Positions 3,977-7,260 of a stretch of 56,663 nucleotides of DNA are shown here, piece by piece (position 1 is the stretch's first letter; every line of letters starts with the position of its first letter). The position numbers and the translations under genes are program-made. This stretch comes from an uncultured Dehalococcoidia bacterium (lineage in GTDB: Bacteria; Chloroflexota; Dehalococcoidia; Lucifugimonadales; QGNO01), in NCBI GenBank assembly GCA_964450505.1, contig CAYVEN010000001.1, positions 1-56,663 on the forward strand. The letters are read 5' to 3'. Under the pieces are notes generated by a model. It did no database searches and had not been told where the DNA came from. It saw only the letters and a list, made by a program, of their open reading frames with translations.

Positions 3977-5419
3977 TTGGGAACCGTGAAATTCGATGAT
4001 TACAACCTAGAGCCGTCCGTGTACGACGAGATGTTCCTCCAGGACGGAACGCCCAGGGAACATTACCGGCCTCTCCACGAAAGCCTGCTCTCCCTCTCCT
4101 CCGAGGAGATCAGGAGCATCCAGGAACGGGTGACCCGCTCCTTCTCCAACGAAGGCATCTCCTTCACCGTCTACGGCGACGAGGAGGGTGAGGAACGGAT
4201 AATCCCCGTGGACTGCGTGCCCAGGGTTATATCCGCTGAAGAGTGGCGCTTCTTGGAAAAGGGACTGGCCCAGCGAGTTAAGGCGCTCAACCTCTTCTTA
4301 GAAGACGTCTACAACGAAGCCCGTATTCTTGAAGACGGCGTCATTCCCGTGGACGTAGTCATGGAGTGCCCCCAGTACCGTACGGAGATGCGCGGCTTTT
4401 CGGCGCCCCACGGCACCTGGGTCGGCATCTGCGGCACCGACGTCATCAGGACCAACGACGGCTTCCGAGTGCTGGAGGACAACCTGCGGGTTCCATCCGG
4501 CGTCTCCTATATGATCGCAAACCGTAAGGCGGTGAAGACCAGTATGCGCCGGCTGTATAGGAGTTCCCGCGTACAGGAAGTGGAGCACTACGGCCGTTTG
4601 CTGCTAGCCACCCTCCTAGAGCTTGCCCCTAGAGGCCGGTCGCAACCGAGCATTGCTCTGCTCACCCCAGGGGTCTATAACTCAGCCTTCTACGAGCACA
4701 TGTTCCTGGCTCATGAGATCGGCGCAGAGCTTGTGGAGGGCCGTGATCTACTGGTGAACGACGGTTTTGTGTACATGCGCACCACCACGGGCCTGCGCAG
4801 AGTGGACATTATCTACCGCCGGGTTGACGACGATTTCCTGGACCCGCTGGTCTTCCGCCCCGACTCCATGCTGGGCGTGCCGGGACTGCTCCACGCTTAC
4901 AAGCTGGGCAACGTGGCCCTGGTGAACGCTCCAGGCACCGGCGTTGCCGACGACAAGAGCGTCTACGCCTACGTGCCGGATATGATCAGGTACTACCTGG
5001 GAGAGGAGGCCATCCTGGCCAATGTGGAAACGTACCTTTGCCGCAGGCCCCTTGACTTGGAGTACACCCTGGACAATCTGGCTAACCTCGTGGTGAAGCG
5101 GGTGGGAGGATCGGGAGGCTACGGAATGATTATCGGCCCCCACGCCACGCAGAAGGAACGGGACGACTACGCCGCGCAGGTCCGCGCCAACCCCGCCGAC
5201 TTCATATCGCAGCCCGTGCTCTCCCTTTCCAGGTCTCCGTGCCTCATCGACGGCAACTTTGAACCGCGGCACGTGGATCTTCGCCCCTTCGTACTCCACG
5301 GACAGGAAACCCGCATGGTGCCTGGCGCATTCTGCCGCGTAGCTCTGCGTCGTGGCAGCCTGGTGGTGAACTCCAGCCAGGGCGGCGGAGGCAAAGACAT
5401 CTGGGTGCTGGGAGACTGA
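3977..5419 (+). CDS. Circularly permuted ATP-grasp type 2 protein (DUF404/DUF407 family)
   Basis: 480 aa. The sequence style (...GISFTVYGDEEGEERIIPVDCVPRVI..., ...VALVNAPGTGVADDKSVYAYVP..., ...SSQGGGGKDIWVL) and its position 5' of alpha-E and transglutaminase genes match the conserved triad. The start is uncertain (TTG 3977 or GTG 3986). Confidence 0.75.
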   Translation: MGTVKFDDYNLEPSVYDEMFLQDGTPREHYRPLHESLLSLSSEEIRSIQERVTRSFSNEGISFTVYGDEEGEERIIPVDCVPRVISAEEWRFLEKGLAQRVKALNLFLEDVYNEARILEDGVIPVDVVMECPQYRTEMRGFSAPHGTWVGICGTDVIRTNDGFRVLEDNLRVPSGVSYMIANRKAVKTSMRRLYRSSRVQEVEHYGRLLLATLLELAPRGRSQPSIALLTPGVYNSAFYEHMFLAHEIGAELVEGRDLLVNDGFVYMRTTTGLRRVDIIYRRVDDDFLDPLVFRPDSMLGVPGLLHAYKLGNVALVNAPGTGVADDKSVYAYVPDMIRYYLGEEAILANVETYLCRRPLDLEYTLDNLANLVVKRVGGSGGYGMIIGPHATQKERDDYAAQVRANPADFISQPVLSLSRSPCLIDGNFEPRHVDLRPFVLHGQETRMVPGAFCRVALRRGSLVVNSSQGGGGKDIWVLGD

Positions 5420-5424
5420 CCGGG

Positions 5425-6393
5425 ATGCTCTCTCGTAGCGCACAAGGTTTGTACTGGATGGGCAGGTACCTAGAGCGGGCGGAGTTCGTCTGCCGTTTGT
5501 TGCGGCTACAAACGGAAGCCCTGGTGGACCGCCCCGTTTCGGAGATCCACTCAGGCTGGAACCGGATCTACAACGGGCTCAACCGCCTGCCTCCCCTGGG
5601 AAGCCAGGTGATGACGAGCAGCGACGAGTTCACCCAGGCCGATTCTTACACCCTAGCCGACGACCTCACCTTTGAGCGCACCAACCCCGATTCGGTGTGG
5701 AGCTGCTTCTCCATGGGGCGTGAGAACGCCCGGCAGATGCGCCATCACATCAGCGGTGAGCTATGGACCAGTATCAACCTGGCCTACCTCAAGATGCAGA
5801 AGTTGACCATCACGGATATATGGGCAACCTCGCCGGAAGGCTTCTACGCCGAAACGGCGGCGGAGATGAACACCTTCTCCGGCGTGGCCGGCGCCACCAT
5901 CTACCGGGATGAAGGCTGGAGCTTCATGCAGCTAGGTCGATTCATAGAACGGGCCCAGCTCTCCACATCGCTGCTCCTGACGCAAATCGACGCCGATGCC
6001 CGGGCCGGGGAGTACTCCGACGCTGACTGGACCAGTCTGCTCCGCCTCTTCCACGCTGTTGAGGCCTACAACCGCAGCTACAGCGTTGAGGTGCACCCGG
6101 ATCAAGTGCTGAATCTGCTGGTTACGGACGCCCTGCTGCCGGACTCGCTCTGCCGGTCCCTGGATAGGGCCCATTCCGGCGTAGCATCCATTGGCTCCGG
6201 ACCCAACGCCAAAGCCAGCAGCGCGGCTCTAAGATTGGCGGGCCGCACCGGCGCCCTCATCCACTACAATTGGCCGGATGGAGAGAACCGGCCCAAGCTT
6301 CTGCGGCAGGTGCAGCAGTACAGCCGCGAGCTGCACAACCTCTTGGCCGACGCCTACTTCGACTATCCCATAGAGGAATTACCAGCCCGCTAG
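5425..6393 (+). CDS. Alpha-E domain protein (DUF403)
   Basis: 322 aa. The N-terminus MLSRSAQGLYWMGRYLERAE is the hallmark opening of alpha-E domain proteins. It is tightly linked to its neighbours, with a 5-nt gap upstream and a 3-nt gap downstream. Confidence 0.8.
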   Translation: MLSRSAQGLYWMGRYLERAEFVCRLLRLQTEALVDRPVSEIHSGWNRIYNGLNRLPPLGSQVMTSSDEFTQADSYTLADDLTFERTNPDSVWSCFSMGRENARQMRHHISGELWTSINLAYLKMQKLTITDIWATSPEGFYAETAAEMNTFSGVAGATIYRDEGWSFMQLGRFIERAQLSTSLLLTQIDADARAGEYSDADWTSLLRLFHAVEAYNRSYSVEVHPDQVLNLLVTDALLPDSLCRSLDRAHSGVASIGSGPNAKASSAALRLAGRTGALIHYNWPDGENRPKLLRQVQQYSRELHNLLADAYFDYPIEELPAR

Positions 6394-6396
6394 CCC

Positions 6397-7260
6397 ATGG
6401 CCGAATCGACGCCGGAACTCTATGAAATAGAGCACATTTCCCGCTATCTGTACACTTCTCCCGTCCGCCACAGCATCCTGTCCCTCTGCCTCAAACCGCG
6501 TAACGACAGACTGCAACGGCTTTTTAGCTACGAGGTAACCACCAGCCCACAGGCGCATCTAACCAGCGAAACTGACTTCTACGGCAACACAAAACAGGTT
6601 ATGAACATCTACCAGGAGCACCAAGCCCTGGAGATTACTTCTCGGTCCGTCGTGGAGTGCAGCCCTCCATCTCCGCTGCCCGGCGTCTCCGGCGCCAGCG
6701 CATGGGAGGAGATCCTATCCTGGCGTGGCTCCTTCAGGTACTGGGAATTCACTCGCCCAAGCGCCCTCGCCAGACCCTCTCCTGCCCTCAACTCTTTCCT
6801 GGAGAAACTGGACGCCGGGCCAGGCGACGACCCGCTGCAGTCCCTGCTCCAGCTTTCTAGCGCCCTCTTCCGAAGGTTCCAGTACGTTCCGGGCGCCACG
6901 TCTGTGTTGTCCCCCATTGAACATATCCTGGAGACCGGACAGGGAGTATGCCAGGACTACGCCCACGTCATGATAGCAATCGCCCGTACCTGGCATATCC
7001 CGGCCAGGTACGTGTCGGGCTATCTATACTTAAACGGCAGCAGGGAGTCTCGACAAATGGCCAGTCACGCCTGGGTGGAGTGCCTGTTGCCCAACCTAGG
7101 CTGGGTCGGCTTTGATCCCACCAATGATTGCACGACGGATCAGCGCTACGTACGGGTAGCCATTGGCCGCGACTACCAGGACGTGCCTCCGGTTCGTGGG
7201 GTTTTAATGGGGGGCGGGGAGTCCCAACTTGACGTGGCCATACATATCAAGCTGGCATGA
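6397..7260 (+). CDS. Transglutaminase-like cysteine peptidase family protein (Bact_transglu_N plus transglutaminase core)
   Basis: 287 aa. The Cys-His-Asp triad context is intact: GQGVCQDYAH (C185), ASHAWVE (H224) and GFDPTN (D240). Confidence 0.85.
   Translation: MAESTPELYEIEHISRYLYTSPVRHSILSLCLKPRNDRLQRLFSYEVTTSPQAHLTSETDFYGNTKQVMNIYQEHQALEITSRSVVECSPPSPLPGVSGASAWEEILSWRGSFRYWEFTRPSALARPSPALNSFLEKLDAGPGDDPLQSLLQLSSALFRRFQYVPGATSVLSPIEHILETGQGVCQDYAHVMIAIARTWHIPARYVSGYLYLNGSRESRQMASHAWVECLLPNLGWVGFDPTNDCTTDQRYVRVAIGRDYQDVPPVRGVLMGGGESQLDVAIHIKLA

Follow-up and report, generated by a model that had tools for sequence, protein, structure and literature searches.

An intact ATP-grasp, Alpha-E and transglutaminase-like gene triad in an uncultured Dehalococcoidia bacterium and its possible link to nitrogen limitation

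We analysed a 56,663-nucleotide (nt) stretch of DNA from an uncultured Dehalococcoidia bacterium (assembly GCA_964450505.1, contig CAYVEN010000001.1), referred to throughout as the window. It carries a triad of tightly packed genes for a circularly permuted (CP) ATP-grasp amidoligase, an Alpha-E protein and a transglutaminase-like cysteine enzyme. The locus is confirmed as an intact, ordinary member of a known three-gene set, in the form without Anbu, the proteasome-beta-like N-terminal nucleophile (Ntn) hydrolase that a fourth gene encodes in other bacteria. We favour a reading in which the triad encodes a cytoplasmic carboxylate-amine ligase, made up of the ATP-grasp and Alpha-E proteins, together with a cysteine amidase, both working in the response to nitrogen limitation; we put its probability at about 0.6. 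The set was first described in 2008-2009 and occurs in many bacterial phyla. To its study the window contributes a clean Anbu-less example, evidence that the squalene genes next to it are irrelevant, and a natural 'dissection' of a sensory cassette, from which the STAS gene alone stayed with the triad and with glnII, the gene for a type II glutamine synthetase. If the nitrogen link is true, the search for the chemistry narrows to amides made or broken under nitrogen scarcity, and abundant marine and sponge-associated bacteria would have a route of nitrogen control without PII.

The three genes and their products

The window is contig 1 of a metagenome-assembled genome (MAG) of 1.67 Mb in 81 contigs, which is 84.6% complete; the size of the host genome is roughly 2 Mb. 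The three open reading frames (ORFs) lie where the sequence-only reading of this DNA had placed them (3977-5419, 5425-6393 and 6397-7260 on the forward strand). They are co-directional, with gaps of 5 nt between ATP-grasp and Alpha-E and 3 nt between Alpha-E and transglutaminase (Table 1). Pfam profiles assign each protein to the family that it had been given. The ATP-grasp ORF matches PF14403 (CP_ATPgrasp_2; E 8e-156) over the full profile (1-374) and also PF04174 (CP_ATPgrasp_1; E 1.5e-140); the Alpha-E ORF, whose translation begins MLSRSAQGLYWMGRYLERAE as had been quoted, matches PF04168 from end to end (profile 1-294 of 294; E 4.2e-65); and the third ORF matches PF08379 (Bact_transglu_N; E 2.7e-19) and PF01841 (Transglut_core; E 7.7e-23). 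The ATP-grasp gene most likely starts at GTG 3986 and spans 3986-5419. This codon is present in 6/6 close relatives and fits the N terminus (MDFDxY...) of less closely related orthologues; only the window and its closest relative have TTG 3977 in frame.

The three genes travel together. With the ATP-grasp protein we retrieved 80 related loci (74-98% identity) from Chloroflexota, Latescibacterota, Acidobacteriota, Gammaproteobacteria and other groups, the nearest public ones being Dehalococcoidia (Chloroflexota) MAGs; the MAG taxonomy of these relatives may contain binning errors. About 70 of the 80 loci have Alpha-E after the ATP-grasp gene and at least 57 have a transglutaminase gene, both counts being lower bounds since genes were called with a simple heuristic caller. 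Median gaps are as short as in the window (3.5 nt from ligase to Alpha-E, n=44; 3 nt from Alpha-E to transglutaminase, n=47). In further Chloroflexota genera, sampled via Alpha-E and with ATP-grasp identity down to 45%, all three genes are kept in 19 of 20. The co-conservation that had been claimed for the set is thus borne out.

Across Chloroflexota as a whole, Alpha-E occurs in 58 of 201 genomes (29%) and 27 of 122 genera. It is present in 10/10 sampled genomes of the genus, in 0/3 from the family's two other genera and in 5/18 from the order. Among 14 control genomes, the ATP-grasp and Alpha-E families both match the same three (Caulobacter, Synechococcus elongatus and Deinococcus). A recurrent 141-residue ORF with no Pfam match ('Cluster 12') was discarded as an antisense shadow of the transglutaminase gene, and loci with it were counted as transglutaminase-positive. 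An MR_MLE gene directly 5' of the ligase gene in 12 loci is of the acid-sugar dehydratase type, not a dipeptide epimerase, and was judged irrelevant. Distant Chloroflexota triads with 50-57% ATP-grasp identity (L117, L127, L130, L132, L133 and L135) often have a second transglutaminase-like gene flanking the operon. The ATP-grasp gene of L046, a locus labelled Gemmatimonadota, is near-identical to Latescibacterota copies (L055; branch length 0.015), which could reflect either a recent transfer or a binning error.

The ATP-grasp protein is strongly conserved and its fold is well covered by known structures. A sequence search matched it to PDB entry 3n6x (E 3e-168), and its homologues in several phyla are 74-98% identical, with 46% of positions invariant among 78 aligned sequences. 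The orthologue from Yersinia bercovieri releases phosphate from ATP (PMC6376114). In the transglutaminase-like protein the Cys185-His224-Asp240 context, claimed intact by the sequence-only reading, proved invariant in 47/47 aligned orthologues, the three residues standing in GVCQDYAH, HAWVEC and GFDPTN, respectively. This protein also matches a 'putative cysteine protease' (PDB 3isr; E 5.5e-10), with the Cys, His and Asp motifs aligned. No signal peptide is visible in its sequence, and all three triad proteins look cytoplasmic.

The AlphaFold2 model of Alpha-E is confident, with a predicted local distance difference test score (pLDDT) of 89.6, a predicted template modelling score (pTM) of 0.90 and 14 helices. 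Sequence search found no relative of Alpha-E in the PDB, and a fold search of the PDB with the model gave best matches with E above 0.4 and template modelling (TM) scores below 0.32, hence no functional lead. The protein carries two ER motifs, GRYLERA at 13-19 and GRFIERAQ at 171-178. In 43 aligned sequences, which included fusion proteins, the invariant residues are R4, R14, E17, R18, R24, N118, E175, R176, Y215, S241 and R270; both motifs (E17-R18 and E175-R176) are therefore invariant in free and fused Alpha-E alike. Since the invariant residues are mostly charged (Arg and Glu), a ligand-binding or catalytic site would fit better than a passive scaffold.

Natural fusions bring the ligase and Alpha-E together. 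A search limited to proteins of fusion length found a genuine family of ATP-grasp+Alpha-E fusions of 845-871 residues (P0132-P0147). Two further candidates, P0124 (ATP-grasp+Alpha-E) and P0125 (Alpha-E+transglutaminase), were discarded as frameshift artefacts at gene junctions. The AlphaFold2 model of one fusion of 871 residues has a pLDDT of 86.3 and a pTM of 0.88 across both domains, and this pTM suggests a defined arrangement of the ATP-grasp and Alpha-E domains. Foldseek matched the ligase half of the model to 3n6x (TM 0.86), to human, yeast and plant glutathione synthetases (E 1e-9 to 1e-6; TM 0.6-0.69), to glutathionylspermidine synthetase (GspS) and YgiC (E 1e-5 to 1e-4) and to trypanothione synthetase; for the Alpha-E half it found no fold match.

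What we infer for the triad in terms of complex formation, chemistry, regulation and physiological role starts from these products. ATP-grasp and Alpha-E would act together as one cytoplasmic ATP-dependent ligase, which would activate a carboxylate as an acyl phosphate and then join it to an amine or ammonia, with Alpha-E binding the substrate or forming part of the active site. Hydrolysis or transfer of the resulting amide, or of a glutamine-type amide, would fall to the transglutaminase-like enzyme. Candidate substrates are a small gamma-glutamyl-type compound or a protein side chain.

The same enzymes could in principle make a specialised peptide natural product, either small and non-ribosomal or resembling a ribosomally synthesized and post-translationally modified peptide, with the transglutaminase-like protein as leader peptidase. 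ATP-grasp ligases do make macrocyclic peptides elsewhere, and one structure, 9cjn (Cp1B), is among the distant fold matches. Neither the 179-nt spacer upstream of the triad nor the gaps between its genes hold a precursor-peptide ORF, however, and the triad has no exporter or tailoring gene as a recurrent neighbour. Moreover, an identity of 74-98% across phyla is unlike that of natural-product enzymes, and the cytoplasmic look of all three proteins also speaks against such a product, which we consider very improbable.

Nitrogen-related neighbours and a partner-switch cassette

In the window, glnII and the STAS gene lie 1-2.3 kb downstream of the triad. The glnII product scores 610 bits against NCBIfam NF041605 (cut-off 500), matches PDB entry 4bax (E 1e-164) and is the only match to PF00120 (glutamine synthetase) in the 84.6%-complete genome. 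The position of glnII is kept in loci L003-L007, and in a separate lineage (L025) a glnII in opposite orientation comes right after the triad. In 29 of the 80 related loci an ammonium-transporter (Amt) gene (PF00909) is found within 8 kb of the triad. Of these, 16 have it wedged between ligase and Alpha-E, at median distances of 50 and 30 nt; in others it stands before the sensory cassette described below, after the transglutaminase gene or one gene upstream, which makes at least four arrangements in three phyla. The Amt of this genome is of the TIGR03644 'marine subtype'; its gene, a neighbour of rpoBC, begins at the edge of contig C47. The sequence-only reading had seen no obvious target gene here. 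This stands for a substrate gene but not for partners, given glnII and STAS downstream and Amt and the cassette in relatives. In one Dehalococcoidia clade (L016, L021, L011, L018 and L031; about 9500-13500) a set of DUF1800, DUF1501 and NHL-repeat genes lies between the ATP-grasp and Amt-Alpha-E genes, and three of these loci have no Alpha-E gene remaining within 8 kb.

A five-gene cassette abuts the triad in at least 22 of the 80 related loci, usually directly upstream; all five genes are contiguous in these relatives. It encodes a STAS protein, a response-regulator PP2C phosphatase, an RsbW-like kinase, a Peripla_BP_6 binding protein and a HAMP histidine kinase. The STAS protein of the window, an ortholog of the cassette's first gene product, shares 55-70% identity with its cassette counterparts; it keeps the conserved motif of the phosphorylatable serine, LSYISSAGLRV, which is invariant in 35 cassette STAS proteins. 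Its gene is 2.3 kb from the triad, beside glnII, and the kinase and phosphatase are not encoded with it in this genome. Instead, the four remaining cassette genes are intact on contig C28 (L083 6388-11494, minus strand), with no STAS gene there. In the ATP-grasp tree, sister lineages of the window's clade (L010, L013/L014, L008 and L009) carry the full cassette beside the triad, mostly with Amt. Hence, the split arrangement in this genome is derived. A Fur-family regulator gene (9949-10488, forward strand) starts 21 nt after the STAS gene and is followed by a gene for a ZnuA/AztC-type metal-binding protein with a long N-terminal extension (10620-11945, forward strand); a minus-strand ORF at 9892-10527 has no family match and is probably a shadow.

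Published observations also bear on the link to nitrogen. The Anbu operon is up-regulated in nitrogen-limited Pseudomonas putida (as reported in PMC5666114 and PMC6376114), and covariation was found in marine metagenomes between the triad's three domains and domains of urea metabolism (PMC3597751). In the genus itself PII (PF00543) is missing from 8/10 genomes, including this one and closed single-contig assemblies. A survey of 31 relatives gave no clear anticorrelation between PII and the triad, PII being present in 4/15 genomes with the triad vs 7/16 without it. The gene neighbourhood adds modest support for a nitrogen role. The triad would serve in the response to nitrogen limitation and come into use when nitrogen is scarce; control in this lineage would probably be exerted by the STAS partner-switch, fed by the sensor formed by the periplasmic binding protein and the histidine kinase, in a genus mostly without PII.

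Several points weigh against a ligase and amidase at work in nitrogen limitation. The link to Amt and the cassette is confined to the ATP-grasp subfamily of at least 74% identity and may therefore be co-regulation in one mobile lineage, with no shared mechanism; the ATP-grasp tree indicates that this highly conserved subfamily has been partly transferred between phyla, and no Amt gene or cassette turns up within 9 kb of the triad in 16 less closely related Chloroflexota loci. In the window, triad, glnII and STAS form transcription units of their own, between which lie a convergent gene and gaps of ~300 nt. Pull-downs with the Y. bercovieri proteins gave no stable complex among operon products (PMC6376114), and no substrate of the triad is reported anywhere in the literature that we found. 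What points to nitrogen control in this host is the gene neighbourhood, together with data from other bacteria.

The nitrogen context can be read in other ways. One is that the triad captures ammonium directly at the expense of ATP: ATP-grasp/Alpha-E would amidate a carboxylate with Amt-delivered ammonia, as a side route resembling glutamine synthetase, and the Cys-His-Asp enzyme would pass on or release the amide nitrogen. The short gaps around the 16 wedged Amt genes, the adjacency of glnII in two lineages and the absence of PII, the usual Amt regulator, from most of the genus would all suit this scheme, and transglutaminase-fold enzymes do act on glutamine amides. The operon in the window has no Amt, however; that of the genome is on another contig beside rpoBC, and distant triads are without Amt neighbours. 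The ligase's structural relatives use amino-acid or polyamine amines, not ammonia. Direct capture seems quite unlikely to us.

Another reading, that of Iyer et al. 2009 and Valas & Bourne 2008 (as quoted in PMC5666114 and PMC6376114), is protein tagging and turnover in the manner of pupylation. Here the ligase would add a tag or an amino acid, the transglutaminase-like enzyme would remove it as a peptidase or deamidase, and a compartmental protease would break down the tagged proteins and so recycle amino acids during nitrogen starvation. The pairing of a ligase with a thiol peptidase would suit such a system, and in many bacteria the proteasome-like Anbu gene completes the operon (PMC5666114, PMC6376114). 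The 46% of ligase positions that are invariant across phyla would fit a conserved macromolecular target, and induction by nitrogen limitation would fit amino-acid recycling. Against this, PF00227 (the proteasome family), which matches 10/14 control genomes, has no match in this 84.6%-complete genome, so that no homologue of Anbu, the proteasome or HslV is found here, and most Chloroflexota triads are without a fourth gene for a protease. None of the 80 loci has a small tag gene in or beside the operon, and Anbu itself showed no peptidase activity, nor were any complexes seen in vitro (PMC6376114). We regard tagging as doubtful.

The carboxylate-amine ligase and amidase that we favour could also form the output, at the enzyme level, of a nitrogen-status circuit that works independently of PII, a speculative extension that we hold to be unlikely. 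The periplasmic binding protein and HAMP kinase would sense a nitrogen compound, and the response-regulator phosphatase would then set the phosphorylation state of STAS. STAS, or the RsbW-like kinase titrated by it, would directly switch the ATP-grasp/Alpha-E ligase and possibly Amt or GlnII. The ligase in turn would write a reversible amide mark on a nitrogen-assimilation protein, or capture ammonium at the cost of ATP. In such a circuit, the retention of STAS beside the triad and the sole glnII, with the other four cassette genes moved away, would mark a true functional pairing.

The upstream region and the squalene genes

The sequence-only reading had placed the triad directly downstream of a squalene operon, with a spacer of 170 nt. 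The adjacency is correct; a start at the conserved GTG 3986, the most likely one, makes the spacer between hpnE and the ATP-grasp gene 179 nt. The five closest relatives share a conserved block of about 110 nt 5' of the ligase gene, and its proximal ~45 nt are retained even in L007, where no squalene genes directly precede the triad. This block contains a perfect palindrome, CCACGTCGTGG, at 3933-3943 and an extended -10-like element, TGGTATCTT, at 3970-3978, which ends 7 nt ahead of GTG 3986. The block is a candidate for the triad's own promoter, and the closeness of TGGTATCTT to the start codon means that the mRNA may be leaderless or nearly so. A pattern scan of the spacer found no terminator-like site and no consensus sigma-70 site. 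Rfam at gathering threshold, run over the whole window, gave no glutamine riboswitch upstream of the triad and matched only a tRNA and an S-adenosylmethionine (SAM) riboswitch; the latter is a SAM-I riboswitch at 14837-14951 on the forward strand (85 bits vs a gathering score of 44). An 8-mer found 5' of the triad, glnII and STAS, CGCTGTGG, was rejected as a shared operator: with 84 copies in the genome vs ~91 expected it is not enriched, and its recurrence is put down to chance.

Could the triad be an extension of the hpnC-hpnD-hpnE squalene operon, for example modifying a lipid or an enzyme of the lipid pathway? It is co-directional with hpnE, with no terminator detected between them, and in the Acidobacteriota locus L038 hpn-like genes again lie within 8 kb of a triad. 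However, only the window and L003-L006 have hpnCDE-like genes immediately before the triad. L007 retains the proximal upstream block although three genes on the opposite strand stand between its hpn genes and the triad, and in 72 of the 80 related loci hpn genes are absent from the vicinity. A functional tie to squalene is thus extremely improbable; the adjacency is a genus-level accident, and the triad is not tied to the squalene genes. In L038 (987-3500) the genes in question are two SQS_PSY genes and an amine oxidase gene, within 8 kb upstream of the cassette and triad and encoding proteins 26-35% identical to those of the window; their presence is probably coincidence.

Two further features of the window lie outside these arguments. 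GPP34 homologues, like that encoded by the convergent gene downstream of the triad, occur within 8 kb of the triad in 10 of the 80 related loci, some of them outside the genus; in L008 the GPP34 gene is co-directional and directly follows ATP-grasp, Alpha-E, transglutaminase and Amt. At the other end, an open-ended ORF at window positions 1-627 on the minus strand matches the collagen triple-helix repeat (PF01391; E 6e-7).

Table 1. Coordinates of the triad and of neighbouring features in the window.
Feature	Coordinates	Strand	Evidence and remarks
SQS_PSY gene	668-1588		Pfam; upstream of triad
SQS_PSY gene, second paralogue	1585-2466		Pfam; upstream of triad
Flavin amine oxidase gene (hpnE)	2427-3806		Pfam; upstream of triad
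Conserved upstream block, candidate promoter	3877-3985	+	Alignment of window with L003-L007
ATP-grasp gene (CP-ATP-grasp type 2, COG2308-type amidoligase)	3986-5419	+	477 aa from GTG; 480 aa from TTG 3977
Alpha-E gene	5425-6393	+	322 aa, all-helical; PF04168
Transglutaminase-like cysteine enzyme gene	6397-7260	+	287 aa; PF08379 + PF01841
GPP34/GOLPH3-family gene, convergent with triad	7304-7999	-	PF05719, E 3.5e-45; doubtful system member
glnII, type II glutamine synthetase gene	8297-9292	+	331 aa; contextual partner, outside operon
STAS (anti-sigma-antagonist-type) protein gene	9589-9927	+	112 aa; PF01740, E 1.9e-19; TIGR00377

Comparison with known systems

The interpretation of the triad given by the sequence-only reading is supported, and several known systems help to place it. 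Eukaryotic-type glutathione synthetase, GspS and YgiC share the circularly permuted ATP-grasp fold with the triad ligase, from which the joining of a carboxylate and an amine via an acyl phosphate is expected. Whereas these enzymes work alone on defined small substrates, the triad ligase always comes with Alpha-E. We do not file it as a synthetase of the glutathione family; the likeness, as judged from the fusion model, is one of fold.

The Pup-proteasome system, with its ligase PafA, its deamidase and depupylase Dop and the 20S proteasome, pairs an amide ligase with an amidase, a logic that it shares with the triad, and it helps mycobacteria to survive nitrogen limitation. The folds of PafA and Dop are glutamine-synthetase-like and so differ from those of the triad, and neither a tag protein nor a proteasome is found here.

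The relatives' cassette resembles partner-switching modules of the RsbV/RsbW/RsbU type with two-component input (RsbK-RsbY type): it has the STAS serine motif, an RsbW-like kinase and a response-regulator PP2C phosphatase. Unlike those modules, it has no sigma factor gene attached, and in this genome STAS has its place beside glnII and the triad, apart from the kinase and phosphatase.

In Mycobacterium tuberculosis we take Rv2411c-Rv2410c-Rv2409c to have the same domain set as the triad, and the fused paralogues Rv2567/Rv2569c presumably have it as well, with the Rv2567-type fusion being of the same kind as P0132-P0147. Rv2411c and Rv2567 have been expressed as candidates, which failed, for an unrelated synthesis of γ-aminobutyric acid-trehalose (2026 preprint). 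Rv2569c is reported as a secreted protease acting on host E-cadherin, with the operon left undiscussed (PMC11081392); this role has no counterpart in a free-living marine bacterium.

The closest parallel is the Anbu operon of Pseudomonas, Yersinia, Cytophaga and others, whose first three genes belong to the same Pfam families and have the same order and tight packing as the triad. A link to nitrogen limitation is published for it (PMC5666114, PMC6376114). Both papers still call the function unknown, as had been claimed for the triad, and we found no later work in the literature that solves the function of the ATP-grasp/Alpha-E/transglutaminase set. The association with Amt and the STAS cassette is not mentioned in the Anbu-operon literature that we found, which did not include the founding paper of Iyer et al. 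2009. Two differences set the present locus apart. Where the Anbu operon continues with its fourth gene, here the convergent GPP34 gene follows the triad instead; and the subfamily to which this triad belongs, unlike the Anbu operon, is repeatedly joined to Amt and to the STAS partner-switch cassette.

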